Shown here: positions 27,566 through 45,807 of the stretch, piece by piece
How positions within the stretch are numbered: the first letter of the stretch is position 1
How the letters are laid out: the number at the start of each line of letters is the position of its first letter
Virus record (IMG/VR): IMGVR_UViG_3300035053_000267
Location: 1 to 64,000 of that record
Direction: 5' to 3' (one strand)
Source of the DNA: a virus
DNA: 64,000 bases
Program-made: the position numbers and the translations under genes
The notes under the pieces: generated by a model
Told to the model about the DNA's origin: nothing
What the model saw: only the letters and a program-made list of their open reading frames with translations
Databases searched by the model: none

Positions 27566-27694
27566 GAGACAAAGGGACGAGTCATGCCGCCCGGCATCGG
27601 TCAATCGTGTGCGCACACGCAGTGGCAAAGCTGCGAACGGCGTCCCGTTGCCCTTGTCCGGCAGGACTCGAACCTGCGACCCGATCCCTGTCTC
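27566..27694 (-). ncRNA. Candidate structured ncRNA with tRNA-like T-arm
   Basis: Closing stem GAGACA..GGGA/TCCCTGTCTC, four internal hairpins, GCAGG-TTCGAGT-CCTGC. Confidence 0.4.
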
Positions 27695-27712: not shown

Positions 27713-27771
27713 CTCCAACAAGGCGCAGCAAGCGACTCCGCTTCGCTACGCGCTTGAGCTAGTTGTTCGCG
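27713..27771 (+). repeat. attC-like site
   Basis: CTCCAAC...GTTCGCG, 59 bp; near-identical to 30532 and 34333. Confidence 0.8.
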
Positions 27772-27965
27772 ATAAAGTTCTTTCCTTCAATACCGCAGTT
27801 CAGGCTTTTTGGCTTGATCGGGCGTTTGCGTTGCGTTTCACGACGTGCCAAAAACGGAGACGCAAAATGACATAGCTCGTCCCGCCAGTGCAGGCAGTCT
27901 TCGCATTTTGGATAACAAGTCAATTCAGGGGACATGTGCCCCGCTGTGCGTTTCGTGTTACTCAT
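27759..27965 (-). CDS. Cassette ORF, Cys-rich
   Basis: Starts inside site 27910; ends ANN* inside site 27713. Confidence 0.5.
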   Translation of the reverse strand: MSNTKRTAGHMSPELTCYPKCEDCLHWRDELCHFASPFLARRETQRKRPIKPKSLNCGIEGKNFIANN

Positions 27966-28010
27966 GATCGTTCTCCCTGGGGCACATGCCCCTGATTTCC
28001 GGCATTGGGC
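27910..28010 (+). repeat. attC-like site (degenerate R')
   Basis: GGATAAC...TCAGGGGACATGTGCCCC/GGGGCACATGCCCCTGA...ATTGGGC. Confidence 0.65.
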
Positions 28011-28192
28011 GGCACACGACAGCCACACCACGGGCAATACCGTATTGCTGGCAAACTGATGGCAACGCCATTCAGGGCCGCATGCTTACATGATGCGTGG
28101 AGTTTGCCCCAATTAGGAACAAACTTGCCACATTTACAGCGTCCAACCATGCGCCCAACAAGGCGCTGGACCGCTACAAAAAATCCGCTCAT
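27962..28192 (-). CDS. Cassette ORF, Zn-ribbon-like
   Basis: RBS and ATG inside site 28153; YCPWCG. Confidence 0.55.
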   Translation of the reverse strand: MSGFFVAVQRLVGRMVGRCKCGKFVPNWGKLHASCKHAALNGVAISLPAIRYCPWCGCRVPPNAGNQGHVPQGERS

Positions 28193-28231
28193 ACTTCGCT
28201 CCTTTTTTGATGGTCAGCTTGTGCGTTCGGC
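28153..28231 (+). repeat. attC-like site
   Basis: GCCCAAC AAGGC GCTGGACC...GGTCAGC TTGTGC GTTCGGC. Confidence 0.85.
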
Positions 28232-28322
28232 ATCAGGCACCCCGGCATGGGAACGGGCATCGGGGAATCGAACCCCAAGCAGCCAGCCATACGCCCGTCA
28301 GGTTTGCCTACCCGTGCCTGAT
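28232..28322 (-). ncRNA. Non-coding cassette with tRNA-like minihelix
   Basis: Terminal IR ATCAGGCAC/GTGCCTGAT; ACGGGCGT/ATGCCCGT stem; GGGG-TTCGATT-CCCC. Confidence 0.45.
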
Positions 28323-28384
28323 TCCGAACAAATCGTTTCACAAACTACCTCGCTTCGCTCGGAGTGTGAACTCCGGCGTTGGGG
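28323..28384 (+). repeat. attC-like site
   Basis: TCCGAAC AAATC GTTTCACA...TGTGAAC TCCGGC GTTGGGG. Confidence 0.85.
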
Positions 28385-28536
28385 CGACCAAGAATCTCGC
28401 GCACAAGGCGCATCCACTCGCCCTTGATTTCGTTCTGAATCTTCTCGTCGATCTGTTCCCACTCTTGCCGCAACCCGCGCCTGTCGGTGAAGTCGGTCAC
28501 TATCGCATCAACAATCAGTTCTGCCGTCTTGTCCAT
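28345..28536 (-). CDS. Cassette ORF, hypothetical
   Basis: MDKTAEL...DFTDRRGLRQEWEQID; GGAGGA RBS. Confidence 0.6.
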   Translation of the reverse strand: MDKTAELIVDAIVTDFTDRRGLRQEWEQIDEKIQNEIKGEWMRLVREILGRPNAGVHTPSEAR

Positions 28537-28553
28537 CCTGTCCTCCATTTTTG

Positions 28554-28613
28554 CCCCAACAAAGGGCTGCAATCTACCTCGCTTCGCTCGGAGCTTGAGC
28601 CCCGGCGTTGAAC
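28554..28613 (+). repeat. attC-like site
   Basis: CCCCAAC AAAGG GCTGCAAT...CTTGAGC CCCGGC GTTGAAC; same family as 31263 and 34798. Confidence 0.85.
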
Positions 28614-28643
28614 TTGACATCCGCCAGCCTCCTGTGGTATTCT
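28614..28643 (+). promoter_or_regulatory. Cassette-internal sigma70-like promoter
   Basis: TTGACA-18-TATTCT with TG extension. Confidence 0.55.
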
Positions 28644-28677
28644 TCGCTCGTGTTTGACCTTTAATAGGAGTCTCGTT

Positions 28678-29163
28678 ATGACACCATATGAACTTGGAAT
28701 TAAAGTTGCACAACAACGCAACGTGTCCGGACACCTGAAGCAGGCGTACGCCCAGGGGCTTGCGGAGGTGTTTGAGAAGAGGGCCTTTTTGGGACTCGGA
28801 CGCCCAAAACAGCGTCCCCAAGCGCCTACTTACACGCCGCCGGTGATGCCCGATTTTCGCCTGGATCCGAACTTTGAACAGAAGGTTCTAGCCGCCATGC
28901 GTAAGGAATGGGGCGAAAGTTTCAACCCAGGAAACTGGACTAACGTCGACGTCGCCGACGGTACTGACGAATTCGATACTATGGAATCCGCCTTGGCTCT
29001 GCAGGAGGCGCTCGGCCTCCCGGTAAGCCTGGACAACATACCGGACGAATTGATGCCGATTGGCGACGCCGCAGCAGACTGGCGCCCGCTCCTCTCTGAA
29101 TTGCAACGTGCTCTAAAAGCCCAACAAGGTGCTCCAGCTTACTCCGCTTCGCTCCGAAGCTGA
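28678..29163 (+). CDS. K-x-A-leader protein with acyl-carrier-protein-like C-domain
   Basis: AGGAG RBS 28666-70; GTDEFDTMESALALQEALG...IPDE versus ACP GADSLDTVELVMALEEEF..EIPDE. Confidence 0.6.
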   Translation: MTPYELGIKVAQQRNVSGHLKQAYAQGLAEVFEKRAFLGLGRPKQRPQAPTYTPPVMPDFRLDPNFEQKVLAAMRKEWGESFNPGNWTNVDVADGTDEFDTMESALALQEALGLPVSLDNIPDELMPIGDAAADWRPLLSELQRALKAQQGAPAYSASLRS

Positions 29164-29178
29164 GCTTGATCGTTGAGT
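29119..29178 (+). repeat. attC-like site (canonical architecture)
   Basis: GCCCAAC AAGGT GCTCCAGC...GCTGAGC TTGATC GTTGAGT. Confidence 0.9.
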
Positions 29179-29504
29179 TTCTTAGAAGATAAAACTCCGC
29201 AAAGCAGCACAGCTTTATCATCTTCGTTGCTGCATCCTTCTTCAATGAGACCGGCCGCTGTTTCAAGCCCGCTGTTGTACGCATGGCATTCTGCACAGGC
29301 GTATATTCGCAATCCGCACCTATCTCCTTTCCAATACGCTTTTTCATTTCCGCAGTCGCATGGTATATTCATCTCATTACTTTCCTCGTTAAAACCCAAC
29401 AAGGTGTCGGTGCGTATATCCGAAAGGGCACGTTCTGCATCCATATCCGGGTCCATGCTCATTAACTCAGTAATCAATTTCTTGACCGTCAGCCTGGCCG
29501 TCAT
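29139..29504 (-). CDS. Cassette ORF, hypothetical
   Basis: Ends LNDQAQLRSEAE* inside site 29119. Confidence 0.55.
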   Translation of the reverse strand: MTARLTVKKLITELMSMDPDMDAERALSDIRTDTLLGFNEESNEMNIPCDCGNEKAYWKGDRCGLRIYACAECHAYNSGLETAAGLIEEGCSNEDDKAVLLCGVLSSKKLNDQAQLRSEAE

Positions 29505-29683
29505 TTTGGCTCTCCTGTTTTATTGTTCATTAACGCTTGTTCTGCCGCCTTGACGTGCTCGCAACATTGTCCGGTGTTTGCTTCACAGCGACATTCAAGC
29601 AGCCCGCGTAACGCCGCTCGCAATACCGAACAGTCGCATTGAGTGGGTACTTGCGCCCCGCTCGCGTTTTCTACATCACTCAT
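29501..29683 (-). CDS. Small hypothetical protein
   Basis: AGGAG RBS; stop overlaps next start. Confidence 0.5.
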   Translation of the reverse strand: MSDVENASGAQVPTQCDCSVLRAALRGLLECRCEANTGQCCEHVKAAEQALMNNKTGEPK

Positions 29684-29995
29684 GGTTTACTCCTTAGGGC
29701 AACTGCCCTTGATTTGTGGCGCTCACAACATCCAAGATGCGCCCGATCACGGGATGGCTTTTAATTTTATACGGTTTTTAAAAGAATATAAAGCCATTGA
29801 AGCACATTAACCACCAGCCACACAGCGCCAGCGATAACTGCTACGTTAATAAGAAATGTGAGCGCGATCATAATTATACGCACGGCTATAAATTGTTTGG
29901 AATTTACCATTTTATCCCTTTCACTTCATTATTCATTTAAAAAATAATCCGCGTGACGATGTCTACTTCTTCTTAACTGCGCCCATATCTGAACC

Positions 29996-30268
29996 TCACA
30001 CTCGGCGTTGGTAATCTACCGTCAGGTCTTCCACGGTGTAGTCACCAATGCGATCAAACACCCCAATCACGCCACCACACTGGATGCCGATGTTTACGCA
30101 CAAGTCCGCGTCTACGCACTCTTCCAGCACGTCCTTCTGCTGCCTGCGCGTGAGGCGGGCTAATCGACGTATCGAAGGAGGCCCCTTCTCTGGGTCAAAC
30201 TGCTCGCGCCGAATGATGCCAACAAGACGATCGAGCATACTGTCAATTACGCTTAGCTCCACTGTCAT
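29996..30268 (-). CDS. Hypothetical protein
   Basis: GGAGGTG RBS. Confidence 0.55.
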   Translation of the reverse strand: MTVELSVIDSMLDRLVGIIRREQFDPEKGPPSIRRLARLTRRQQKDVLEECVDADLCVNIGIQCGGVIGVFDRIGDYTVEDLTVDYQRRV

Positions 30269-30511
30269 TCACTCACCTCCATAGCTGGGGCGGCATGCTT
30301 CCCGCAGCACTTCGTGTCCTTTGTCCGTCATACGGAAATACTCATCCGGCACGAACGACTTGCAGCCCGCCGACACCATCAGCCCAGCCTCGATCAGCTT
30401 TTGCATGTCGGGGCTGTCCCCGCAATACAGCCCACCAGCGGCCCGGTGTGCCGTGTGATCCAGTATCGCCAGTTGTTCCTTATTCAATCGCTTCCAATTC
30501 ATTTCACTCAT
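30269..30511 (-). CDS. Small winged-helix-like hypothetical protein
   Basis: MSEMNW...LIEAGLM...YFRMTDKGHEVL; AGGAG RBS. Confidence 0.55.
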   Translation of the reverse strand: MSEMNWKRLNKEQLAILDHTAHRAAGGLYCGDSPDMQKLIEAGLMVSAGCKSFVPDEYFRMTDKGHEVLREACRPSYGGE

Positions 30512-30531
30512 TCTTCTCTCCTTATTCAGAT

Positions 30532-30588
30532 TGCCAACAAAATGCAGCAAGCGACTCCGCTTCGCTACGCTTGAGCTAGTTGTTGTCT
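30532..30588 (+). repeat. attC-like site
   Basis: TGCCAAC...CTTGAGC TAGTT GTTGTCT. Confidence 0.8.
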
Positions 30589-30983
30589 GTACTGATGCCG
30601 CATGGCAGGTCTTCTGGCCCAAGTCCCTCGCAACAATCCACGCAGATGCGTCTACCTTCCCCAGCCTTGTCGAACGGCTCAGTGTAATGAACCTCGTACT
30701 CGTTGCCGCAGTTGGCACACGTCACAATGGTGTTGGACGGGACAGACAACAAAGCAGTGGATGCTATCGGCGAGTACGCCGAAGCGTCACCGCCAGCGTT
30801 GGGTTTACCAACGAGTTGCATCGTCTCAAACATCTGAACATAGTTGACGGTGCCATCGTCTTGCACAATCACCCACGAGTCACCTGTCGCTTGCGGCGTG
30901 TAGTCCACCACTCCGCGCAAACTCGATCCGTCGCTGGCGAAAACCACCAGCACCCTGTCGTCCTTCTCAATCCTGTTTTTCAT
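30576..30983 (-). CDS. Two-cassette fusion ORF (SH3-like part plus Zn ribbon)
   Basis: Reads in frame through site 30744. Confidence 0.6.
   Translation of the reverse strand: MKNRIEKDDRVLVVFASDGSSLRGVVDYTPQATGDSWVIVQDDGTVNYVQMFETMQLVGKPNAGGDASAYSPIASTALLSVPSNTIVTCANCGNEYEVHYTEPFDKAGEGRRICVDCCEGLGPEDLPCGISTDNN
30744..30804 (+). repeat. attC-like site (intragenic)
   Basis: AGACAAC AAAGC AGTGGATG...CGTCACC GCCAGC GTTGGGT. Confidence 0.8.
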
Positions 30984-31009
30984 CTTGTTCCTTCCCGCCT
31001 TGCTGGGAA

Positions 31010-31071
31010 ACCCAACAAGACAAATCGAGCCTACTTGCTACCGCTGCGAGACTGCTTTGCAGCGTTTGGGG
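31010..31071 (+). repeat. attC-like site (degenerate)
   Basis: ACCCAAC...TTTGGGG; both ends match neighbouring sites. Confidence 0.55.
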
Positions 31072-31245
31072 CTAGTAAAGTTCTTCCCATTCATTGTCGC
31101 CATTGCCCGTGTACTGGCTCACCGTCTCGCCGTCGATCCGCAGCAGCACGCCGCCATCCTCCAGCACGCCAGCCTTGTAGTCGTCCAGCAATTCCGCGTC
31201 GGCAATGTGCGCTCTGCCCTTGTAGTCAACACTCACGTATGTCAT
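31072..31245 (-). CDS. Cassette ORF, acidic
   Basis: MTYVSVD with GGAGGA RBS. Confidence 0.55.
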   Translation of the reverse strand: MTYVSVDYKGRAHIADAELLDDYKAGVLEDGGVLLRIDGETVSQYTGNGDNEWEELY

Positions 31246-31262
31246 CTTGTCCTCCAATCCAG

Positions 31263-31322
31263 CCCCAACAAAGGGCTTCAATCTACCTCGCTTCGCTCGG
31301 AGCTTGAGCCCCGACGGTGAGC
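31263..31322 (+). repeat. attC-like site
   Basis: Near-identical to 28554; R' changed to GGTGAGC. Confidence 0.75.
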
Positions 31323-31514
31323 GCTGCATTGGGCATATAATCTTAGCCAGCGTGATACGCTTTGATTTGCCCCGCGTCCTCTTCGTCCCAAGCAACACCA
31401 GTAAGGGCGTCTACGATGTCAGGAATGTCTGTGTTTGTCAGTTCGTGGATTTTCTCCACCGCGTCACCTATCAGAATCAAGTGGTTCAATTTCATCGTTT
31501 TCCTTCCCGTCCAT

Positions 31515-31587
31515 GCCCAACAAAAGCATGGACAACTGCGTCATTTTCGCTTCGCTTCAATGCCGAGTGTCATGCTCGGCGTTCGAC
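31515..31587 (+). repeat. attC-like site
   Basis: GCCCAAC...GCATGGACA/TGTCATGC...GTTCGAC. Confidence 0.85.
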
Positions 31588-31769
31588 AGACGAGCGAGTA
31601 TGCGGCGTGATTCCCTTCCCAGCGTAACGCCGGGGCGCACAATGCTGCGCTTGTCGATGTCTGCTTGTCCCTCGGTCATCTCGACGATTGCCCGCACCAG
31701 CTCCAGCGCGGGGCATGTCGAACAAGCGGATGGACAACTACCTTCATTCGTCGCGCTTCGCTTACTCAT
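31557..31769 (-). CDS. Cassette ORF
   Basis: Starts inside site 31717, stops inside site 31515. Confidence 0.45.
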   Translation of the reverse strand: MSKRSATNEGSCPSACSTCPALELVRAIVEMTEGQADIDKRSIVRPGVTLGRESRRILARLSNAEHDTRH

Positions 31770-31796
31770 TTCGGAGTGTCATCCTTTCCGTTAGCC
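31717..31796 (+). repeat. attC-like site
   Basis: GTCGAAC...GGATGGACA/TGTCATCC...GTTAGCC. Confidence 0.85.
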
Positions 31797-32002
31797 CTAC
31801 AGCCTTCGTTGCGGCATCCGTTCGGCGTGAGGCCGCACTTCTTGCAGTAGCCCGAGTGCAGCATGGCGTTCAGGTTGTTTGCCCAGTGCCACAGATCATC
31901 GTCTTGCGGACGGGCAAACTCCATCATCTCAATGCTCACCCCGGAAGGGCGAACAAGGCGTCCGACCGTACCCGAAACAGCCGCTTGCGGTGTTTGGTTC
32001 AT
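31766..32002 (-). CDS. Cassette ORF
   Basis: MNQTPQ start in an ATGA overlap inside site 31948. Confidence 0.5.
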   Translation of the reverse strand: MNQTPQAAVSGTVGRLVRPSGVSIEMMEFARPQDDDLWHWANNLNAMLHSGYCKKCGLTPNGCRNEGCRANGKDDTPK

Positions 32003-32050
32003 GCTGTGCCTTTCTCTGGCTGTTTCGATCCGGTCAACTCTGCGTTGGGC
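31948..32050 (+). repeat. attC-like site
   Basis: GGCGAAC...GACCG..CGAAACAGCC/GGCTGTTTCG..CGGTC...GTTGGGC. Confidence 0.85.
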
Positions 32051-32241
32051 ATATGAGGCTCTATCAGCGTAATCGTGCATCCCTCGCTGACCGCCCATTC
32101 TTTTTTTGTCTCCATGTCCTGAAAGTACCACGAGTCGCCCGTTGCCGAGGGCGTGTGTAGTACCTTGGCCCGACTGCAAAGCGTGTACTGTGCATTGTTG
32201 AAGTTAACACATACAATGTCGCCTTCCTGAATTGATCTCAT
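31999..32241 (-). CDS. Cassette ORF, related to N-half of 30576..30983
   Basis: Shared TPxATGDSW motif. Confidence 0.6.
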   Translation of the reverse strand: MRSIQEGDIVCVNFNNAQYTLCSRAKVLHTPSATGDSWYFQDMETKKEWAVSEGCTITLIEPHMPNAELTGSKQPEKGTA

Positions 32242-32268
32242 GTTGTCCTTTCCGGCCTTGCGGTACGT

Positions 32269-32326
32269 GCCCAACAAGGCCAATCGACGGTACGGCTATT
32301 CGCCGCCCGTCATTGCTGCGTTGGAC
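32269..32326 (+). repeat. attC-like site
   Basis: GCCCAAC AAGGC CAATCGAC...GTCATTG CTGC GTTGGAC. Confidence 0.85.
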
Positions 32327-32493
32327 GTATCGTGTTTATCGAGAATCATGTTCACAGACCCAAGGCAGGATGTGAACGCGGCGCGTCCATCCGGACCAGC
32401 CAGTTGACTGTTTTTCGCAACCTCAAGTTCGCGCTTCAAGTCGCGCAAATCGTCCAACAAAGAAGTGGACGCTACCTCATTTCGCTCGCTCAT
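32296..32493 (-). CDS. Cassette ORF
   Basis: Starts inside site 32452, stops inside site 32269. Confidence 0.55.
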   Translation of the reverse strand: MSERNEVASTSLLDDLRDLKRELEVAKNSQLAGPDGRAAFTSCLGSVNMILDKHDTSNAAMTGGE

Positions 32494-32535
32494 TCTTCGC
32501 TCCCTTCATTCTGATCGTCACTTCCGGCGTTGGGC
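32452..32535 (+). repeat. attC-like site
   Basis: GTCCAAC...GAAGTGGACG/CGTCACTTC...GTTGGGC. Confidence 0.85.
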
Positions 32536-32708
32536 GTATAATCAGGGTTGTGCCAGACCGAAAACCCGTTCCGCTGCAAAACATCTGCGGCCACGCTGGT
32601 CTGACAGAAGCCGTCCGACCCGTAATCCGTGTCCAGTTCCTTCGCCTTGCGAATGATGTCATTCGCGCTGGCCGGTTCGTCATCAATCATGTACTTTTTT
32701 TCGTTCAT
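32490..32708 (-). CDS. Cassette ORF
   Basis: AGGAG RBS; ends PNAGSDDQNEGSEE*. Confidence 0.6.
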   Translation of the reverse strand: MNEKKYMIDDEPASANDIIRKAKELDTDYGSDGFCQTSVAADVLQRNGFSVWHNPDYTPNAGSDDQNEGSEE

Positions 32709-32734
32709 CGCTTTTCTCCTTTATGTTACGGAAC

Positions 32735-32793
32735 GCCCAACAAGGCGCTCCAGCTTACTCCGCTTCGCTCCGAAGTTGAGCTAGTTATTGAGT
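32735..32793 (+). repeat. attC-like site
   Basis: Near-identical to 29119; R' ATTGAGT. Confidence 0.8.
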
Positions 32794-33302
32794 TTCCACG
32801 CAATAACACGAGTTTTGCTTTCGTCAAGTTCGCTGTTATTGGAGAAGCAAAACCGAGGATCGGTCGGTTCCTCTAGTGTCATCTTATCCTCGGTTATTCG
32901 ATCTGTGCGATAATGCAGAACCTTGCAAATCAAAGGTGCGCTGAATGGTGGGTGACTATCAGCGTGCCAGACATTAAAAGAAACCCAATGATCGCTTGGA
33001 ACAGACGCGGAAACCGCGCCGCTAAAGTGTGCGTTCGGCATACGTTCCCTTGCGGCATCCCACGCCTTTCGGACCATCGGATCGGCGTGACTTCCAATCC
33101 AATGTCCACCTTTCGTCCCGACCTCAACGACGTACCAGTGCCACCAATCGTATTCCGACTTCCAGCGCAGAACGCCGCCAGCCTGTTTCGTTGTCTCAAT
33201 CTCATCCGCCCACGCCCACGCAGACAGATGCCGAACAAGACGTTTAAATTTATCTTTCACTCGCTTCGCTCCTTTCAGAAAACTCAATTTAGGCGTTGGC
33301 AT
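32781..33302 (-). CDS. Two-cassette fusion ORF
   Basis: Reads in frame through site 32983; start uncertain. Confidence 0.5.
   Translation of the reverse strand: MPTPKLSFLKGAKRVKDKFKRLVRHLSAWAWADEIETTKQAGGVLRWKSEYDWWHWYVVEVGTKGGHWIGSHADPMVRKAWDAARERMPNAHFSGAVSASVPSDHWVSFNVWHADSHPPFSAPLICKVLHYRTDRITEDKMTLEEPTDPRFCFSNNSELDESKTRVIAWKLNN
32983..33039 (+). repeat. attC-like site (degenerate, intragenic)
   Basis: ACCCAAT...CGCGGAAACCGCG...GTTCGGC. Confidence 0.6.
33230..33301 (+). repeat. attC-like site
   Basis: GCCGAAC...CGTTTAAATT/AATTTAGGCG...GTTGGCA. Confidence 0.7.
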
Positions 33303-33603
33303 CTACCCCCCACACGTCCCAAATGAACGCATGGACGTTCTCTTTGTCCCAAGCCTGCCGCGTCGCCCATCCGTCCTCTGATTCAGCAGGGATTCCGTGG
33401 CTGTCGAGCCACGTCCGGTACTCTCTCAAAAAATCGTGGTACTGACGCGGGGCCTGTGTTACCGCATGGATATACTCGGCAAGCGCAAGGTGGTCATCAA
33501 GGCATGTTCGGCACCTGTCAATCCAACAGTCAAAGTGATGCCGAACCGGAAATACCAACAAATCAGTAGAGGCCGTATCCATTCGATCGCTTTGTTCATT
33601 CAT
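33289..33603 (-). CDS. Cassette ORF
   Basis: MNEQSD with GGAGG RBS; ends DANA*. Confidence 0.55.
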   Translation of the reverse strand: MNEQSDRMDTASTDLLVFPVRHHFDCWIDRCRTCLDDHLALAEYIHAVTQAPRQYHDFLREYRTWLDSHGIPAESEDGWATRQAWDKENVHAFIWDVWGVDANA

Positions 33604-33770
33604 GCTAAAACCTCCCTTACCTCTGCACCATCCCATGTCGCCGCATACAACCATACACCGCGAACACACCACCGGCTGCACCTGACCGGACGGACGCGCG
33701 GGTTTGTCGATGTTTGCTGTGTGTTAGTTTGTGTATGTTTCTTATCCATTATTTACTTCCATTTCGCTCG

Positions 33771-34001
33771 TCAGGTGAATCGGGAGGTAACAGACAACCA
33801 TTGCGGATGTATCCCGCACCCGTCTACGCCGGGCAGCGCGACCTCGTAGTGGCAATCGTCGCCCTTATACGCAGTATAATCATGGGTAATTTCGCCTATC
33901 ATGCCGTCAATGGATTCCGGCCAGTCATTTATCCAGTAGCCGCGATCCTTCATCCAAGTAGACGCCCCACTTTTCACCTTTACGAATGTTCCAACCTTCA
34001 T
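33771..34001 (-). CDS. Cassette ORF, SH3/KOW-like
   Basis: MKVGTFVKVK; AGGAG RBS. Confidence 0.6.
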   Translation of the reverse strand: MKVGTFVKVKSGASTWMKDRGYWINDWPESIDGMIGEITHDYTAYKGDDCHYEVALPGVDGCGIHPQWLSVTSRFT

Positions 34002-34012
34002 ATTATCTCCTG

Positions 34013-34072
34013 CGCCAACAAGGCGTTCCAGATTATTTCACTTTGCTCAAAATCTGAGATTTGTCGTTAACT
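34013..34072 (+). repeat. attC-like site
   Basis: CGCCAAC AAGGC GTTCCAGATT...AATCTGAGA...GTTAACT. Confidence 0.75.
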
Positions 34073-34323
34073 GACGCCGCTGGTCCCATACTTTGCTGGG
34101 CTGTGCGTAACATCCGTTTCGCTGTTTCGTGACGGGATTCGTCGGAGTACTTCATTTCGACCTGATGCAGCAACTCGCAGTACAGGCCGTTCAGGCGTTT
34201 GTTTTCCAGTTCAAACCGCAAGACCTCTTTATGCAGGGCTTCGTTCTCTTGCTCAAGGTCCGTTATATATGCCGCGCTGGTTTCCGGCAACTCGCCCCGT
34301 TCTATATCGCTTGGTTCTATCAT
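34033..34323 (-). CDS. Cassette ORF, coiled-coil
   Basis: LYCELLHQVEMKYSDESRHETAKR; AGGAG RBS. Confidence 0.6.
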   Translation of the reverse strand: MIEPSDIERGELPETSAAYITDLEQENEALHKEVLRFELENKRLNGLYCELLHQVEMKYSDESRHETAKRMLRTAQQSMGPAASVNDKSQILSKVK

Positions 34324-34332
34324 TATATACTC

Positions 34333-34391
34333 CTTCAACAAGGCGCAGCAAGTGACTCCGCTTAGCTACGCGCTTGAGCTAGTTGTTGGGC
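34333..34391 (+). repeat. attC-like site
   Basis: Near-identical to 27713. Confidence 0.8.
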
Positions 34392-34392
34392 A

Positions 34393-34569
34393 TCACAACC
34401 GTACCCCGTCCCAGTTGACGCTGCTGAACCACACAGGCATGTGGTCAATGCTCTCGCGGTCTTCCTTGCGCCTCACGGCGTCTTCGAGGTCTTCCTCGGT
34501 CAGAACGCCGTGCGTGATCCGCGTTGTGTCCTTGTCCGTCTTCCAATATGCGTCATAATTGATTTCCAT
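34393..34569 (-). CDS. Cassette ORF
   Basis: MEINYD; has its own stop codon. Confidence 0.5.
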   Translation of the reverse strand: MEINYDAYWKTDKDTTRITHGVLTEEDLEDAVRRKEDRESIDHMPVWFSSVNWDGVRL

Positions 34570-34596
34570 CGTTCCCTTTCCGGCCTTGCGGGACAT

Positions 34597-34654
34597 GCCC
34601 AACAAGGCCAATAGAGCGCACGTCTAACGCCGCCGCTCATTGCTGTCGTTGGGC
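34597..34654 (+). repeat. attC-like site
   Basis: GCCCAAC AAGGC CAATAGAGCG...CGCTCATTG CTGTC GTTGGGC. Confidence 0.85.
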
Positions 34655-34785
34655 GTATACTTCTGTGTCCAGTCCGTCACTTGATGCTCTGCTGGCATCT
34701 TGTCTCCGCACTTTGGACACTTAGCCATGTCCTTCCGTTTTGGTACATTCACTGTTCCGCACCACTGACAATGCATCTGTTCCAT
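34624..34785 (-). CDS. Cassette ORF, Zn ribbon
   Basis: CQWC...CPKC; GGAGG RBS. Confidence 0.55.
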   Translation of the reverse strand: MEQMHCQWCGTVNVPKRKDMAKCPKCGDKMPAEHQVTDWTQKYTPNDSNERRR

Positions 34786-34797
34786 GGTCGTCCTCCC

Positions 34798-34857
34798 GCC
34801 CAACAAAGGGCTGCAATCTACCTCTCTTCGCTCGGAGCTTGAGCCCTGGCGTTCGGT
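34798..34857 (+). repeat. attC-like site
   Basis: Same family as 28554; R' GTTCGGT. Confidence 0.85.
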
Positions 34858-34935
34858 GCCAATTCATTGCACCGCCAGCACTCCATGTCGTAATCGTTGT
34901 TCAGTTGCCCACAGTGATCGCATGTTCACGTCGGC

Positions 34936-35017
34936 ACCGAACAAAACGCTGGAAAACTATCTCCGCTTCGCTCCGAAGTCTCCGCTTCGCTCCGAAGTCT
35001 CAGCTTCTGCATTGGCT
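34936..35017 (+). repeat. attC-like site with 19-bp internal tandem duplication
   Basis: ACCGAAC...(TCTCCGCTTCGCTCCGAAG)x2...ATTGGCT. Confidence 0.75.
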
Positions 35018-35199
35018 GCAAGGTCGCGCAATACCTTAGCCGCCCACTCACAGCGTGCCCGAATGTTCTCCCGCTCGCTCATCATGGCCAAGCTGACGCG
35101 CTCGTGTCGCATGAACCATTCCTGGTGCTTGCGGAAGATGTCGTCAAAAACGTCGGCAGCAGCCAACAAGGCGCTGGAGTCTATCGTCTGTCCGCTCAT
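34957..35199 (-). CDS. Cassette ORF
   Basis: Starts inside site 35161. Confidence 0.55.
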   Translation of the reverse strand: MSGQTIDSSALLAAADVFDDIFRKHQEWFMRHERVSLAMMSERENIRARCEWAAKVLRDLAANAEAETSERSGDFGAKRR

Positions 35200-35238
35200 T
35201 CTTCGCTCCCTTCTTGACCGTCAAGACGGTCGTTCGGT
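35161..35238 (+). repeat. attC-like site
   Basis: AGCCAAC AAGGC GCTGGAG...GTTCGGT. Confidence 0.7.
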
Positions 35239-35399
35239 TTCCAAAGCCCAAACGTGAACAGCCGTCCCCAGTCTATGAGTAGTGACTTCCAAAGAGGAAC
35301 TCGCATGTCTGGCATAAATGATGGCGTATCAAGCCGATTGAAAAACCGAACAAGGCACTTCAGCGCACCAATGAAGCCGCGCCAACCTTTCTGTTTCAT
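35196..35399 (-). CDS. Cassette ORF
   Basis: MKQKGW start inside site 35345. Confidence 0.5.
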   Translation of the reverse strand: MKQKGWRGFIGALKCLVRFFNRLDTPSFMPDMRVPLWKSLLIDWGRLFTFGLWKPNDRLDGQEGSEE

Positions 35400-35450
35400 T
35401 CTCCACGTCCTTCCTGCGGCTTCATTGGCCGCTGAGTTTCGGCGTTCGGC
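35345..35450 (+). repeat. attC-like site
   Basis: ACCGAAC...CAGCG..CCAATGAAGCCGC/GCGGCTTCATTGG.CGCTG...GTTCGGC. Confidence 0.88.
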
Positions 35451-35674
35451 TCGTATCCACAAGCGCGGCATGGGTATGGCCGTGAGCCAGAAATTTCTGC
35501 GCCGCATGATACGCAGTGATACGAGGCTGTCTGATTACGGGCATGGTGAGCCGCTAAAGCGGCGCCGGTCAGCCGCGTGCCCGCAAGGTCGATGAACGGC
35601 TCAGCCGAACCACTGGATGCAGGCTGACCGCCTGCGGTTTCTGTGGTTGCGGTGTTCGTAGATTCATCTTTCAT
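35396..35674 (-). CDS. Cassette ORF, Zn ribbon
   Basis: CVSC...CRAC; starts inside site 35604. Confidence 0.55.
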   Translation of the reverse strand: MKDESTNTATTETAGGQPASSGSAEPFIDLAGTRLTGAALAAHHARNQTASYHCVSCGAEISGSRPYPCRACGYEPNAETQRPMKPQEGRGE

Positions 35675-35733
35675 CGTCTGTGTCTCCTTCGGTTTCTGAT
35701 TGTTCCCGGCGGCAGCTGATCCTGCCGTTCGAC
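35604..35733 (+). repeat. attC-like site
   Basis: GCCGAAC...GGATGCAG/CTGATCC...GTTCGAC. Confidence 0.8.
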
Positions 35734-35930
35734 ACCATACACCGTATGCTGGAATAGAATCCGGTCAAGTGTCGCCTCCACTTCATCGGCCTGTGCTCAA
35801 ATGTGTGAGGCTTACACTTTCCGTCCGGCTTCATCAGCCCATCCCATCGGCATTTCCATGTTTCAGGGTGCTGATGCGGGCAGGGTGTCGAACCAGGCGC
35901 TGGAGAACTATCGTCAATCCGCTCGTTCAT
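35664..35930 (-). CDS. Cassette ORF
   Basis: Starts inside site 35887, stops inside site 35604. Confidence 0.5.
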   Translation of the reverse strand: MNERIDDSSPAPGSTPCPHQHPETWKCRWDGLMKPDGKCKPHTFEHRPMKWRRHLTGFYSSIRCMVSNGRISCRREQSETEGDTDDER

Positions 35931-35973
35931 TCTTCACTCACTCCTTTCCGAAGTCTCAGCTTCGACGTTGGCC
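35887..35973 (+). repeat. attC-like site
   Basis: GTCGAAC CAGGC GCTGGAGA...TCTCAGC TTCGAC GTTGGCC. Confidence 0.88.
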
Positions 35974-36221
35974 TCAAAGACGTGGAACACGAGCCCGCCG
36001 CCGTGAAGCTGAAACGTGCCGATGTAGTCACCGGGATCAGTAGCGCAGCAATGGCCGGTGCCGTACACGCGGAACGTCCGACGTTCCTGCGGGGCGTTCG
36101 AGTCCACCAGCGCCCACAGTTGCGGTTCGCCGTGCTGTTCTTGCACTGTCAGGATCTTCGCGCCTTGCGGCATGTCCAACGTGCATTCGGTGGTCAGTGT
36201 CCATTTCCAGATTGTTCTCAT
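35934..36221 (-). CDS. Cassette ORF, conserved-looking small phage protein
   Basis: MRTIWKW...MPQGAKILTV...LWALVD...YGTGH...YIGTFQ...FHVFE. Confidence 0.75.
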   Translation of the reverse strand: MRTIWKWTLTTECTLDMPQGAKILTVQEQHGEPQLWALVDSNAPQERRTFRVYGTGHCCATDPGDYIGTFQLHGGGLVFHVFEANVEAETSERSE

Positions 36222-36249
36222 GCTGTCCTTTCTGCTCGGTCAACCGTGA

Positions 36250-36307
36250 GGCCAACCAGGCGTTGGAGAATACGGCTTACAGCCGATTCTCAACTTTATC
36301 GTTCGGT
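36250..36307 (+). repeat. attC-like site
   Basis: GGCCAAC CAGGC GTTGGAGA...TCTCAAC TTTATC GTTCGGT. Confidence 0.9.
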
Positions 36308-36894
36308 TGAACTTCCGCAGGCCAGCGCCACTTGCCACGATCAAGGCATTCCACAATGGCGAGCGCCACGGCGGCTACCTGCACGGCTTCCTCTCGGATG
36401 TGCTCGGCGGCTGGCCCTCCAAACCGATCATGGAGTGCGCACTGGCACAGCTCGCCGTATTCCTCGCCGAGCACTGTTAGGTAGGCAAACGGGTCATGGT
36501 TTTGCTCGCCCCACTTCTCATCCTGCCGCCGCCGTTCTTCGAGCACGTCAACCAGTGCAACCGAACAAGGCGCTTCACTCGTACCGACAAAGGCCGGTTT
36601 TGCGTTGTCTGTCATGTCATTTCCTTTCTCCGGCTTTTGCTGGCCGGTCAGCTTGTCGTTGGGCTCCTCTGGTCCAAGGCCACAGCAGCCCTCCTCGGGG
36701 TACTCATGGAACCACGCCACGTGATCGTAGAAACGGCGCGTCTTCCCGTCGTCGTCGAGAACACCCTGCTCTGGTCCGTCAGCAATCTGGATTTCAGACT
36801 CTTCTTCTTCAGGGTCGTCCTTCGGGCCAAGAGGCGCGACGATCAACCCACAGAACTCAGCCAGCGTCCGAATCTCCTTGATCGTCAGTATCAT
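36277..36894 (-). CDS. Two-cassette fusion; C-part is a MazG-like nucleotide pyrophosphohydrolase
   Basis: ERRRQDEKWGEQNH...GEEYGE...EEAVQVAAVA; reads through site 36560, which also holds an internal ATG. Confidence 0.7.
   Translation of the reverse strand: MILTIKEIRTLAEFCGLIVAPLGPKDDPEEEESEIQIADGPEQGVLDDDGKTRRFYDHVAWFHEYPEEGCCGLGPEEPNDKLTGQQKPEKGNDMTDNAKPAFVGTSEAPCSVALVDVLEERRRQDEKWGEQNHDPFAYLTVLGEEYGELCQCALHDRFGGPAAEHIREEAVQVAAVALAIVECLDRGKWRWPAEVQPNDKVENRL
36560..36664 (+). repeat. attC-like site (intragenic)
   Basis: ACCGAAC AAGGC GCTTCAC...GGTCAGC TTGTC GTTGGGC. Confidence 0.75.
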
Positions 36895-36920
36895 TGCTTT
36901 CCTTTCTGCTGGCCGGGTAA

Positions 36921-36978
36921 GCCCAACCAGCATTTCGAGCGTACCGGCTACCGCCGTCCGCTCAAATCGTTGTTGGCA
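36921..36978 (+). repeat. attC-like site (last clear site)
   Basis: GCCCAAC CAGCA TTTCGAGCG...CGCTCAAA TCGTT GTTGGCA. Confidence 0.85.
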
Positions 36979-37123
36979 TCTTCAATGATGGTCGATCTCG
37001 ATCCAATTGGCGTCCATGTCACAATCCGCAAGCGGGTTTCCTGCGCTAATGTCGTGACGGTAGCCAGTCTTGTACTCGATCCATTCTTCAATTTCGCGTT
37101 CTGTTGCCCCCGTCTCGGGCACT

Positions 37124-37396
37124 TCAATGACGAGCGACACATTGTATTGCTTCATCTCGTTCCTTATTATTTATAAGATTTATCAGCTCCTCTGGTAAAT
37201 CATCTGTCCAGAAGTCGTTTTCTTCACACTCAAAACCATATTTAAGACCCCAAAATTCTCTTATTGCTCCATGGCCCAGAACATCGTTGTCACGCCACCC
37301 TGAGAGTTTTTCTCTGCCATGGGCAGAGAATACCTCTTTATCAGTTAAGTAAAATAGTTTGTTATCTTTTTCAATCCAGCTTATAAAATTGCACAT
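37124..37396 (-). pseudogene. Truncated copy of the helical-repeat protein N-domain
   Basis: Near-identical to the paralogs for about 70 aa; no repeats. Confidence 0.6.
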
Positions 37397-37462
37397 GTTT
37401 ACTCCTTAATTGTTTGAAATGCAGCCGACAGGATGCAGCTCCCTGTCGGCTGTACGCTGTTA

Positions 37463-38347
37463 TTATGTTTCAAGCTTAGAAAGCAACTTTTGTGCTTCTT
37501 TTTTATACTTGCTGGGAGCGCGGCACACAATATATTGCAAATCCTCCTCAATGGGTTTCTGCTTAAGTAATTGTTGCCACGCTTCTTCTCTCCACTTATC
37601 GGGAGCGCGGCACACGGCATATCGCAGATCCTCCCTAGTGTGTTTCTGCTTGAGTAATTGTTGCCATGCTTCTTCTCTCCACTTGTCGGGAGCATAACAC
37701 ACAATATATTGCAAATCTGCATTAGTAGGCTTTTGCTCAAGTAATCGTTGCCATGCTTTTTCTTTCCACTTACAGAGAACGTGGCACACAGCATATCGCA
37801 GATCTTCATTAGTGGGGCTCTGCTCAAGTAGCTGTTTCCATGCCTTTTCTGCCCGCTTACTGGGAGCGAAGCGCATGATATATCGCAGATCCATATTAGT
37901 GGGCCTCTGTTTGAGTAATTGCTGCCACGCTTCTTCTGCCCGTTTGTCAGTAGAACGACATATAATCAGTCGCAGATCGTTATTAGTGGGTCCCTGCGCA
38001 AGCAGCTGCTGCCATGCTTTTTCTGCCCACTTACTGGGAGCGAAACGCACAATACGTCGCAGATCATCATTTTGAGAATGGCCGTTTCTCCACATTTTAC
38101 CAAAGTTTGCATCAAAATCTTTTATGAGATTCTTTAACTCCTTTGGCAACTCCTCTGCCCAAAAGTCACGTCTCTCATACTCAGTGCCACCTTTAACGCC
38201 CCAGAATTCTCTTATTGCTCCGTGGCCCAGAACATCGTTGTCACGGCATCCTGAGAGTTTTTCTCTGCCATGGGCAGAGAATACCTCTTTATCCGTCAGA
38301 TAAAATAATTTATTGTCCTTTTCAATCCAACTAATAAAATTACACAT
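37463..38347 (-). CDS. 29-aa helical-repeat protein, paralog 3 (7 repeats)
   Basis: Same architecture as 12757 and 13405. Confidence 0.8.
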   Translation of the reverse strand: MCNFISWIEKDNKLFYLTDKEVFSAHGREKLSGCRDNDVLGHGAIREFWGVKGGTEYERRDFWAEELPKELKNLIKDFDANFGKMWRNGHSQNDDLRRIVRFAPSKWAEKAWQQLLAQGPTNNDLRLIICRSTDKRAEEAWQQLLKQRPTNMDLRYIMRFAPSKRAEKAWKQLLEQSPTNEDLRYAVCHVLCKWKEKAWQRLLEQKPTNADLQYIVCYAPDKWREEAWQQLLKQKHTREDLRYAVCRAPDKWREEAWQQLLKQKPIEEDLQYIVCRAPSKYKKEAQKLLSKLET

Positions 38348-38363
38348 TTATTCCTCCTTAGTT

Positions 38364-38645
38364 TTATCTTTCAAAAATCAGAGAATCAGCACTTACAGTG
38401 TGCCACCCACACATATCAGCGGCCATTCTCCTTACTTCTCGATTAATTCTATCTTGTGCGTCGCTATAAGTTAGATAGTCAACCCGAGGCAGTGAAAATA
38501 ACTTTTTAGGAAAAGGCACCCACTTTAACTTACGCCACCATAAGTACCCACACCATTCACGATGCTCAATGCGAAATATTATTCCATTAGTAATGACGCG
38601 AAACTCTTTAGCGAGCTCTTTAGCTATCTCATCTATTTCTGGCAT
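38364..38645 (-). CDS. Hypothetical protein
   Basis: AGGAG RBS. Confidence 0.6.
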   Translation of the reverse strand: MPEIDEIAKELAKEFRVITNGIIFRIEHREWCGYLWWRKLKWVPFPKKLFSLPRVDYLTYSDAQDRINREVRRMAADMCGWHTVSADSLIFER

Positions 38646-39097
38646 ATGCTGTTTGCTCCTTTATTTTTCTGATTCCGAAGATGCCAACGCCACCAGGTCT
38701 TAGCTCGTCTGTCTGAGCGACCATCGTTCTCCCATACAGCAGGGATCAGCACATCCACCTGCCCGGCCTCCACCGACAGCAAACCGACCTGAGCCTGCTT
38801 AAACTTATCCAATGTTCTTAAACGCATCTTATCACAGCGCTCCCGGGGCATTGCAGCAAAACTGGCATTGACAAATGCACGATTACCTTGCGCCTGCATT
38901 ATTACCTGCCTGACATTGGACATCTTCAATTCAACAGCTACTGCACAATCCAGTGGCGGCACCGACCTCCCTGTGCGAGGATGGAACCGAAAGCCAATAA
39001 CATCACAGTAGCCGCTCAACAGGCATTCATGGGCATCCTCCAGACCATCGGCTGCCAGCCAGTCAACAATTGGCTTCCTCATATCGTTCTCAACCAT
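38633..39097 (-). CDS. PD-(D/E)xK nuclease-fold protein
   Basis: E...CDVIG...AVELK...QA. Confidence 0.55.
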   Translation of the reverse strand: MVENDMRKPIVDWLAADGLEDAHECLLSGYCDVIGFRFHPRTGRSVPPLDCAVAVELKMSNVRQVIMQAQGNRAFVNASFAAMPRERCDKMRLRTLDKFKQAQVGLLSVEAGQVDVLIPAVWENDGRSDRRAKTWWRWHLRNQKNKGANSICQK

Positions 39098-45116: not shown

Positions 45117-45807
45117 GCTGTTCAGCCCCCAGGGTTCCCAGAATCCCACCGCTGATAGCACTGTACAAAAGCTCAGGCCACATATATGTGTGTTTGGCTC
45201 TATTAAGAGTTTTTCTGTACTTTACTCTATCTTTAGGCGGCAGATTCATTTTACGAAGTTTATCAATAGCTATTTGAGTAGCTTGACTTTCATTTATGTA
45301 TCCCGGAGTATTAACCAGAGCCTGTACGGCAACGGAAGCAAGAGGTCCGGTCCAAGGCTTGCCGGTAATCCTGCCGGCCGCATAGCCGGCAATAGGACTA
45401 AGACCCGTTAATAGCGAAAAAAAAGGCTTAAGTTTTTTCTGATTAAACCTGGATAAGCCTGGAGTTTTCTCTATAGACTGATGCCCAAGCTCATGAGCAA
45501 TAACGCCTAAATTACGAAAGGAAGGATCATAGGCCACTATGCCGCTATTATGATAGTTTTCAGGCAGCCCAATCTGTTTGGCGCGATTAGGAGCAACATA
45601 CATGGCATTATTCAGGCCGGGAATAGAGACAGCCTCCATCCCCGACCCTTCCATCAATTTGTCAATATCTTTTAAACTGGCTTTAGGCAAATCCCTCATC
45701 GCTGAGTCTACATACGCTTTAGACGCAGTATTAATGCCGTATCCAGCAGCCATAAGAGCAGCAAGAGTTCCGACATCTTTCAGAGTGATTTTAGCCTTTT
45801 TACGCAT
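45109..45807 (-). CDS. Zn-metallopeptidase-like membrane/virion protein
   Basis: AHELGH...NESQA. Confidence 0.65.
   Translation of the reverse strand: MRKKAKITLKDVGTLAALMAAGYGINTASKAYVDSAMRDLPKASLKDIDKLMEGSGMEAVSIPGLNNAMYVAPNRAKQIGLPENYHNSGIVAYDPSFRNLGVIAHELGHQSIEKTPGLSRFNQKKLKPFFSLLTGLSPIAGYAAGRITGKPWTGPLASVAVQALVNTPGYINESQATQIAIDKLRKMNLPPKDRVKYRKTLNRAKHTYMWPELLYSAISGGILGTLGAEQHD

Follow-up and report, generated by a model that had tools for sequence, protein, structure and literature searches.

Chain pairing between successive attC-type sites in a cassette array on a large-phage fragment

Our analysis supports the view that the row of small genes on a large-phage fragment consists of real, precisely cut, swappable cassettes and not merely of repeated terminators. 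The internal proof is a chain of pairing: in 17 of the 28 junctions, the sequence that follows G|TT at one site is perfectly complementary, in reverse, to the sequence that precedes AAC at the next site. The array, in record IMGVR_UViG_3300035053_000267, is very probably a cluster of attC sites lacking an integrase (CALIN) made of integron-type gene cassettes. A CALIN is defined by at least two attC sites in the same orientation with no integron integrase nearby (Cury et al. 2016, PMC4889954), and here 28 sites share the + strand with an integrase absent nearby. The pairing lets cassette boundaries be placed to the single base and the same cassettes be followed across other phages and metagenomes, and it makes the array sites directly testable with IntI. 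The principle is not new, and phage CALINs were already published in 2023; the novelty lies in how large the array is and in its backwards gene layout.

The array and its sites

The host of the array is a 111-kb record, a fragment of a large phage that is about 57% complete, with about 43% missing (CheckV estimate); the fragment comes from oil-field metagenomes. Positions refer to the window, the 64,000-nt stretch analysed. Sites were called with R1, an alignment-based covariance model built in this analysis and not the curated IntegronFinder/HattCI attC model; it replaced a generic scan for AAC...GTT pairs ranked by folding energy, which was unspecific across the 64-kb window. An Rfam scan of 25-40 kb returned chance hits only; the curated attC model is absent from Rfam. 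R1 identified 28 attC-type sites at 27713-36978, all 28 on the + strand, and none outside the array in the whole 111-kb record. A 29th site (38677-38732), missed by R1, was recognised by eye. The GC content of the array is 52-60%, versus about 42% in both flanks. By eye, a tRNA 3'-half-like fragment adjoins the first attC site. In the following list, TT+n denotes TT and n further bases matched to the next R''.

27713-27771, + strand: attC A; R1 57.3 bits; R' tail without match to the next R''; the homologous cassette in contig L077 keeps a 7-bp match
27910-28010, + strand: attC B, R' = ATT; R1 28.9 bits; TT+5 to the next R''
28153-28231, + strand: attC C, long type; R1 49 bits; next R'' matched with 1 mismatch in 12
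28323-28384, + strand: attC D; R1 56.9 bits; TT+5
28554-28613, + strand: attC E; R1 64.5 bits; next R'' unmatched; followed by the sole cassette with a + strand gene
29119-29178, + strand: attC F; R1 66 bits; 1 mismatch to the half-site R'' ending at 29400; 96% identical to a site in phage contig G001
30007-30016, + strand: orphan R' half-site; 1 mismatch in 10 against the R'' of site I (read off the sequence)
30532-30588, + strand: attC I; R1 47.4 bits; TT+6
30744-30804, + strand: attC J; R1 39.1 bits; TT+6
31010-31070, + strand: attC K; R1 42.5 bits; next R'' matched with a 1-nt indel
31263-31322, + strand: attC L, R' degenerate (GGT); R1 51.5 bits; not a seed
31331-31339, + strand: orphan R' (ATT form) after site L; perfect 8-nt complement of the site M R'' (read off the sequence)
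31515-31587, + strand: attC M; R1 49.1 bits; TT+5; in L078 a site 92% identical to it is joined to another cassette
31717-31796, + strand: attC N; R1 43.9 bits; next R'' matched with 1 mismatch in 9
31948-32050, + strand: attC O; R1 28.1 bits; not a seed; TT+5
32269-32326, + strand: attC P; R1 47 bits; TT+5
32452-32535, + strand: attC Q, long type; R1 59.1 bits; TT+6
32735-32793, + strand: attC R, R' = ATT; R1 59.2 bits; next R'' unmatched
33230-33301, + strand: attC S; R1 41.2 bits; TT+3; followed by a two-gene unit
34013-34072, + strand: attC U; R1 51.8 bits; unmatched
34333-34391, + strand: attC V; R1 51.2 bits; TT+6
34597-34654, + strand: attC W; R1 45.1 bits; TT+5
34798-34857, + strand: attC X; R1 68.7 bits; TT+7; the following cassette is only 91 nt between repeats
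34936-35017, + strand: attC Y, R' = ATT; R1 51.3 bits; TT+6
35161-35238, + strand: attC Z; R1 41.2 bits; TT+6
35345-35450, + strand: attC AA; R1 35.8 bits; not a seed; pairs TT+2 with AD, but over 8 nt with an R''-like word that ends at 35610
35727-35736, + strand: orphan R' half-site; perfect 10-nt complement of the site AD R''
35887-35973, + strand: attC AD; R1 54.2 bits; TT+7; homology with L076, L077 and L079 starts exactly at its G|TT (35967/35968)
35968-36301, + strand: cassette 25, DUF7352 gene (35934-36221, - strand) with attC AE; PF24043, E 5.9e-27; homologous cassettes in other arrays
36250-36307, + strand: attC AE; R1 55.6 bits; TT+6
36560-36664, + strand: attC AF; R1 23.9 bits; TT+5; 90% identical to a site in MAG contig L252
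36921-36978, + strand: attC AG; R1 37.4 bits; perfect 12-nt match to a word ending at 38688
38677-38732, + strand: probable last attC, AH; complements the AG R' over 12 nt; short bulged hairpin with GTT at 38726 (by eye); closes a 1.75-kb low-GC cassette (36973-38726; GC 0.44, backbone-like)

Among the aligned sites AAC is invariant (23/23), as is TT, and G is present in 21/23; A or T replaces the crossover G in four or five sites. The sites are imperfect palindromes bounded by AAC and GTT (RYYYAAC ... GTTRRRY), R'' pairs with the R' of the reconstituted site, and lengths of 57-106 nt with a variable terminal structure fall within the 57-141 bp of attC. The stem covaries, with 87.7% of cells pairing versus 27-40% in slid controls and 57 compensatory cells, and contains a 1-nt bulge on the + strand AAC arm and spacers of 5/5-6 nt; on the bottom strand this bulged base is either C or G, where G is usual. 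The terminal loop reads GAA on the - strand. Because the AAC-arm bulge and the - strand GAA loop fit the rule that tells attC top from bottom strand (PMC5027507), the + strand is the attC top strand. Comparison by eye of paralogous attC families within the array did not settle polarity; this was settled by external homologues (see below) and a Mantel test, in which similarity of attC bodies tracked the R'' flank (rho 0.23, p=0.003) and not the R' tail (p=0.78). Chain pairing fixes the crossover point and, together with this other evidence, the polarity of the sites.

Pairing between successive sites

The 28 junctions are formed by the 28 R1 sites and the by-eye site at 38677-38732, and in the 17 perfect ones the pairing covers TT and 5-9 further bases (7-11 nt beyond the G). 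Between 28378 and 36927, 15 perfect GTT.../...AAC pairs of 8-10 nt each flank a single cassette, and two further perfect pairs have ATT instead of GTT (31331/31521 and 35011/35167). The 17 exact pairs counted in a first-pass annotation of the sequence are thus correct in number (15 GTT and 2 ATT, single-cassette), and its four quoted examples are exact (34851/34942, 35727/35893 and 35967/36256, each 10 nt; 32529/32741, 9 nt). Two other exact pairs use half-sites inside ORFs (33033/33236 and 35444/35610). Near matches occur at C>D (1 mismatch in 12), at K>L (a 1-nt indel) and, with 1 mismatch each, at N>O, F>29400 and 30007>I; in all, about seven additional junctions have one mismatch or indel or are resolved via orphan half-sites. 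Pairing is lost at five junctions (A>B, E>F, R>S, S>U and U>V). The longest perfect pairing, 12 nt, joins the site AG R' to the word ending at 38688, and pairing partners lie 90-1700 nt apart, spanning whole genes.

The summed perfect match between R' of one site and R'' of the next was 98, versus 29.8 +/- 6.8 in shuffled site order, where the maximum was 64 and the observed score was reached in 0/100,000 shuffles. The mean R' match was 0.68 nt to the site's own R'' and 1.04 nt to all other sites, indicating that own-site pairing is at background. These results confirm the earlier observation that R' matches the next site, often not its own, and does so far better than in random order. Short-range pairs (<300 nt apart, at least 8 nt) numbered 16 in the 9.3 kb of the array versus 3 in about 52 kb outside it.

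In the mechanism that we propose, each attC would form an imperfect hairpin composed of R'' (...AAC), a spacer, a bulged L box, a variable loop and R' (G|TT...), and a tyrosine recombinase of the integron-integrase type would cut the bottom strand, in its folded form, between A and C, a position that reads G|TT on the top strand. Because the cut would fall between A and C, the excised cassette circle would carry a self-complementary R box. On insertion the upstream cassette would keep the G and the TT tail would move to the cassette start, so that every R' in the array would be chimeric, with a tail that pairs with the next R'' and not its own. Integron cassettes classically bear this mark, the pairing of a chimeric R' with the next site; it has been in textbooks since the 1990s, and Hall, Stokes and colleagues reportedly defined cassette boundaries by the same logic in 1991 and 1997.

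Further support for true cassettes that open at G|TT is provided by folding. On the bottom strand, reconstituted attC sites reached -15.6 kcal/mol versus -12.2 in-array and -12.4 with random tails; the stability gained by reconstitution is 3.4 kcal/mol (p about 1e-5), and in-array versus random-tail folding gave p=0.25. In reconstituted site AE, the bottom strand forms a 10-bp R box and an unpaired spacer, and two bases bulge out of its 3' arm. Reconstituted circular sites thus fold better than in-array chimeras or random pairings. The proposal that the units were inserted as true cassettes holds in part: cassettes that open at G|TT are backed by the refolding and by external homology that starts at G|TT with cassettes in another order, but insertion one by one at this place is not, as an array of 52-60% GC in a 42% GC phage may be a block capture. 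The idea that the right half is young was not borne out, with perfect junctions at 7/14 on the left and 10/14 on the right (Fisher p=0.44); R-box pairing is under functional selection and is therefore not a clock. The junctions without pairing fall at orphan half-sites and at units that are fused or hold several genes, an indication of local deletions and not of age. In a canonical integron of this polarity (+ strand as top), new cassettes would enter on the left.

Cassette genes and related cassettes elsewhere

In 27/28 cassettes the gene lies on the - strand, the attC bottom strand, with its ATG adjoining R''; this departs from the canonical layout of a top-strand ORF followed by its attC. 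Family matches (PF24043 and phrog_24212) indicate that the genes are real. Most ORFs terminate inside the site at their 3' end, after reading 25-55 nt of it, and some sites carry a ribosome-binding site and ATG in the loop; sites are transcribed with the genes. Close homologues of the DUF7352 protein share ...EAN followed by unrelated tails, indicating that the site at the 3' end does not travel with the gene.

The DUF7352 cassette is also present in three other contigs (L076, L077 and L079), in all of which unrelated upstream DNA gives way to homology exactly at the TT of G|TT. L076 and L077 have in common the attC body on the R'' side, which is the gene's 5' side. L077 carries two window cassettes in an order different from that of the window, and L078 has a 92% copy of site M joined to another cassette. 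These homology breakpoints, and the shared attC joined to a different cassette in L078, are indirect evidence that an integron integrase would recombine the sites at G|TT. Sites of this attC family are also found in two phage-like contigs of 52-59% GC, G001 and L183; in the latter, an independent array, chain pairing recurs. In bacterial genomes, most of 120 pattern hits were not attC by R1, and a search for a complete integron with the array's attC family found none; the one true IntI (419 bits, Kiritimatiellia MAG) is on a 4.6-kb contig without R1 sites. For the flanking proteins at 39573-40589 and 43269-45161, related phage loci were not found among viral contigs.

Chain pairing is symmetric under strand inversion and so cannot by itself exclude the opposite polarity, in which the - strand would be the attC top strand, each gene would precede its 3' site in canonical fashion and crossover would fall at the other site end. 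We consider this very unlikely. It would suit the ORFs that end 25-55 nt inside their 3' site, as in many canonical cassettes, but the bulged base would be on the wrong arm and the purine-rich GAA loop is on the - strand, attC bodies co-vary only with the flank at the gene's 5' side, the site common to L076 and L077 is on that same side, and the DUF7352 homologues, diverging after ...EAN, do not carry the 3' site along. It is harder still to believe that the repeats are gene-flanking stems or terminators with an RNA or transcription role, as in mobile regulatory cassettes of T4-type phages, rather than a footprint of recombination. Although transcription of the sites with the genes and loops bearing a ribosome-binding site and ATG are consistent with such a role, partners 90-1700 nt apart across whole genes, homology breakpoints exactly at G|TT, variable cassette order between arrays and a complete attC architecture argue for recombined cassettes. 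The T4-type elements (PeSL), reportedly described by Arbiol et al. in 2010 and proposed to mediate gene shuffling, are similar in that stem-loops recur between small accessory genes, within a hyperplastic region of the phage. Unlike the array, they are promoter and stem-loop repeats that act via homologous recombination, without an AAC/GTT core, bulged L box or chain pairing.

Recombinase and origin of the array

The 111-kb record (about 57% complete) contains no TIGR02249 integron integrase and no PF00589 tyrosine recombinase, and no recognisable attI or Pc was found, which sets the array apart from a complete integron. No tyrosine recombinase was found in six other phage contigs with R1 sites. 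One phage that CheckV rates 100% complete has three such sites and lacks a tyrosine recombinase. The first R'' and the last R' have no partner within 20-45 kb. The array matched contigs of four oil-field metagenome runs without differences, and no excision joint at an attC was present in these assembled contigs, where rare events are invisible. We infer the enzyme and also the place and time of array assembly; because a recombinase is absent from the 111-kb record, probably either the host supplies it or its gene lies in the missing portion of the genome.

There is nearly an even chance that the array was built in another replicon, a phage or bacterium of higher GC that had an integrase, and captured as one block, in which case the pairing would be inherited and no part would be young. 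Consistent with capture, the array is 52-60% GC against flanks of about 42%, the recombinase is absent from the record, the contigs of the four oil-field runs are identical over the array and lack an attC joint, several R' are degenerate and several units fused, the same attC family is found in phage-like contigs of 52-59% GC (G001 and L183), and a tRNA 3'-half-like fragment was seen by eye beside the first site. However, the GC of 0.44 in the last cassette (36973-38726) and its 12-nt pairing suggest that one or more exchanges followed arrival, the record covers only about 57% of the genome, and rare excision is undetectable in assembled contigs. A rather doubtful proposal, which we make tentatively, is a phage-associated cassette pool distinct from bacterial integron cassettes, with attC on the coding strand at the gene's 5' side, often with a conserved leader, ribosome-binding site and even start codon, exchanged at G|TT between unrelated phages (42% and 52-59% GC; oil-field, marine and other samples) by a recombinase in trans.

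The array resembles integron arrays and CALINs (PMC4889954) in its AAC/GTT, R and L boxes, unpaired spacer, bulge, variable loop and lengths of 57-106 nt, and in its single site orientation, cassettes of 150-570 nt, chimeric R' and G|TT crossover. It differs in lying on a large phage without intI, attI or Pc, and in having 27/28 genes on the bottom strand with attC at the gene's 5' side and some loops with a ribosome-binding site and start codon. Qi et al. 2023 (PMC9892861) reported 17 CALINs, with at least two attC each, in temperate and virulent phages; IntI1 recombined 5/6 tested phage attC sites at G|TT, and two CALINs were described with the gene direction typical of bacterial arrays. The likeness to our array is a phage-borne attC cluster without integrase; our array differs in its number of sites (about 28), its backwards genes and a GC content that exceeds the backbone's by 10-15 points. 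The Vibrio cholerae superintegron is similarly a long sedentary array of small genes of unknown function, with attC sites that fall into families of near-identical copies and cassette limits set by such pairing, but VCRs follow genes on the coding strand and adjoin intIA/attIA, whereas the array here has mixed attC families and no integrase nearby.

Chain pairing along the array of attC sites

The stem analysis and the covariance model of the array's attC sites (R1) were both based on an alignment of 23 repeats picked by eye as obvious. These repeats share a common plan, in which four variable bases, AAC and a 5-nt spacer are followed by a 5' stem arm with one extra base, a loop of varying length in which a CGCTTCGCT core is frequent, a second stem arm, a 5-6-nt spacer, GTT and variable bases. 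Stem positions pair in 87.7% of alignment cells, compared with 27-40% in controls with the partner shifted 1-3 columns. Compensatory changes are found in 57 stem cells, and the pairing and covariation values were matched by no shuffle. Searching with R1 identified 28 sites at E < 1e-3, five of them non-seeds, all within 27713-36978 of the window on the + strand and none elsewhere in the 111-kb record. One more was seen by eye only:

38677-38732, 29th site

The first-pass annotation had listed 17 junctions at which the bases from G|TT of one site (R') are the reverse complement of the bases ending in AAC at the next site (R''), and often not of the same site. We recovered every one of its quoted pairs in an unbiased inverted-repeat search (pattern GTTxxxxx...xxxxxAAC), which found 16 perfect short-range pairs (8-10 nt) within the array and only 3 in the remaining 52 kb. 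With sites defined by the model, 17 of 28 junctions indeed pair perfectly over TT and the next 5-9 bases, and three further junctions are off by one mismatch or one-base indel. Four junctions resolve via orphan half-sites (29400, 30007, 31331 and 35727), and no R'/R'' pairing was detected at five. The summed match between R' and the following R'' is 98, against 29.8 +/- 6.8 (maximum 64) in 100,000 shuffles of site order, and a site matches itself over 0.68 nt on average, no more than it matches unrelated sites (1.04 nt). Given this permutation score and same-site matching at background, pairing with the next site, and not with its own, is clearly above random. Chain pairing is also found in an independent eight-site array on L183, a contig assigned to a Planctomycetota MAG by binning yet carrying phage-type genes (helicase, DUF2800).

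The pattern had been read as that expected if each unit was once a circle with a self-complementary attC. When each site was joined to the TT tail from the start of its own cassette, mimicking the excised circle, mean bottom-strand folding energy changed from -12.2 to -15.6 kcal/mol (Wilcoxon p about 1e-5), while tails taken from other sites gave -12.4 kcal/mol; the reconstituted sites are more stable than either version, in line with that reading. In their chimeric array form, the sites fold no better than random (p=0.25). In its predicted fold, reconstituted site AE has an R box of 10 bp and an L box whose 3' arm bulges at two bases, with the spacers left unpaired.

Polarity of the sites and exchange of cassettes

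Chain pairing alone cannot tell the cut end because it is symmetric under strand inversion. Three independent lines agree that the + strand is the attC top strand. The bulge lies on the arm bearing 5'-AAC (+ strand) and the GAA loop reads on the - strand, exactly the top/bottom distinction by bulge arm and loop described by Nivina et al. 2016 (PMC5027507). Over all pairs of sites, similarity of the bodies tracks the flank to the left of AAC (rho 0.23, p=0.003) and is uncorrelated with the bases to the right of GTT (rho -0.06, p=0.78). Comparison with external cassettes also agrees with this polarity. One cassette found in other contigs carries the following gene:

35934-36221, - strand, DUF7352 protein gene (PF24043, E 5.9e-27)

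The closest DUF7352 homologues all finish in ...HVFEAN, followed by unrelated tails; reverse-complementing the codons for AN gives the core of R'. Three metagenome contigs (L076, L077 and L079) have the cassette in common with the window from the TT of G|TT onward, and the DNA directly before that G is unrelated among all four copies; the attC body on the R'' side is also common to L076 and L077. Directly after the DUF7352 cassette, L077 carries a homologue of cassette 27766-28004, which in the window stands 24 cassettes away. A 7-bp R'/R'' match survives in the L077 copy and has disappeared from the one in the window, which explains why the junction between sites A and B fails. A marine contig (L078) has a 92% identical copy of site M joined to the DUF7352 cassette and not to the window's cassette 11. 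Together, the shared G|TT breakpoints, the differing order and joins and the recurrence in L183 indicate that G|TT is where cassettes are cut and that they have moved into new combinations between arrays.

A contig from an oil-field run (X19) matches the window from 35970 rightwards; its preceding 255 nt differ and GTT is missing. It is another context of the DUF7352 gene, not ending at a canonical junction. R1-type sites were also observed on MAG contigs of Dehalococcoidia (L252), Kiritimatiellia (L186) and Lentisphaeria (L172 and L203), for which short-contig binning is uncertain, and one of these sites is 90% identical to window site AF. Among these MAGs a true integron integrase is present only in the Kiritimatiellia genome, on another contig than the R1-type sites.

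Orientation of cassette genes and a conserved leader

In 27 of 28 units the gene is encoded by the attC bottom strand and starts adjacent to R'', and the 3' ends of these genes extend 25-55 nt into the neighbouring site. The sole + strand gene of the array is:

28678-29163, + strand, cassette 28608-29172, 161 aa, no family hit

R'/R'' pairing is missing at the junction of this cassette, one of five such junctions. Long-type sites hold a ribosome-binding site and ATG in the loop (GGAG, spacer and ATG on the - strand):

28153-28231, long-type attC site, motif on - strand
32452-32535, long-type attC site, motif on - strand
35161-35238, long-type attC site, motif on - strand
35887-35973, long-type attC site, motif on - strand

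Because of these start signals, several ORFs begin inside the site and continue through R'' to the cassette. A conserved leader of roughly 22 nt, from ATG to R'', is nearly identical in the window phage, an unrelated phage contig (G001) and L183:

Window, 32708-32741, leader copy
L004/G001, 13.8 kb, leader copy
L183, 0.5-2.9 kb, leader copies

The genes behind the leader differ among the three, and the leader behaves as a single conserved unit together with R'' and the attC body. All 11 R1 sites near DUF7352 homologues in metagenome contigs are antisense to the gene, and at 69 phage loci with more distant homologues no nearby R1 site was detected.

Missing recombinase and history of the array

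The record is 111,747 bases long, the window being its first 64 kb, with completeness of 57% (CheckV). The array's flanks have a GC content of ~42%, with nearly all long ORFs on the - strand, and their split multisubunit RNA polymerase genes and DNA ligase identify a large phage. All sequencing runs containing the window stretch come from oil-field metagenomes.

The array has the classical structure of integron cassette arrays, where G|TT points bound integrated cassettes and array sites are chimeras of neighbouring cassettes (PMC3053210; PMC4889954). Neither an integron integrase (TIGR02249) nor any tyrosine recombinase (PF00589) is encoded in the 111-kb record, and none was found in G001 or five other site-bearing phage contigs, one of them 100% complete by CheckV. 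With no integrase, the array qualifies as a CALIN; phage CALINs were described by Qi et al. 2023 (PMC9892861), who also showed their recombination by IntI1 in experiments. Chain pairing is real and diagnostic, yet not new in principle, because it belongs to the classical integron structure and phage CALINs are already published. It was from pairing of this type that Hall, Stokes and colleagues reportedly first inferred the crossover point. The phage genome L293 (IMGVR_UViG_3300031873_000003, 93.8 kb, 100% complete by CheckV) carries R1-type attC sites, three in number, and no tyrosine recombinase was found in it.

The suggestion that the right half of the array is young was not upheld. Perfect junctions number 7 of 14 on the left and 10 of 14 on the right (p=0.44), the failed ones fall at fused units of several genes and at orphan half-sites, the crossover G is lost at four or five sites, and contigs from four oil-field runs match the array without differences, with no joint at attC. 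GC climbs to 52-56% between ~26 and 38 kb of the window, and block capture of the array would be compatible with this difference from the backbone. The terminal 1.75-kb cassette, which combines backbone-like GC with the longest pairing (12 nt), speaks against a purely fossil array.

A stretch at ~27640-27690 (- strand), ~25 nt from the first attC, resembles a tRNA T arm plus 3' acceptor half; called by neither ARAGORN nor Rfam, it may be the scar of an old attachment site at the edge of the array. Within the last cassette lies an element of ~952 nt (37402-38353) with a 294-aa ORF (37463-38347) and a depth 3-5 times that of its surroundings. Contigs of two runs join 38353 back to 37402, suggesting a circle or tandem copy, several runs' contigs diverge at both ends of the element, and a related word pattern is found near 13075. 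The element is probably a multi-copy mobile gene.
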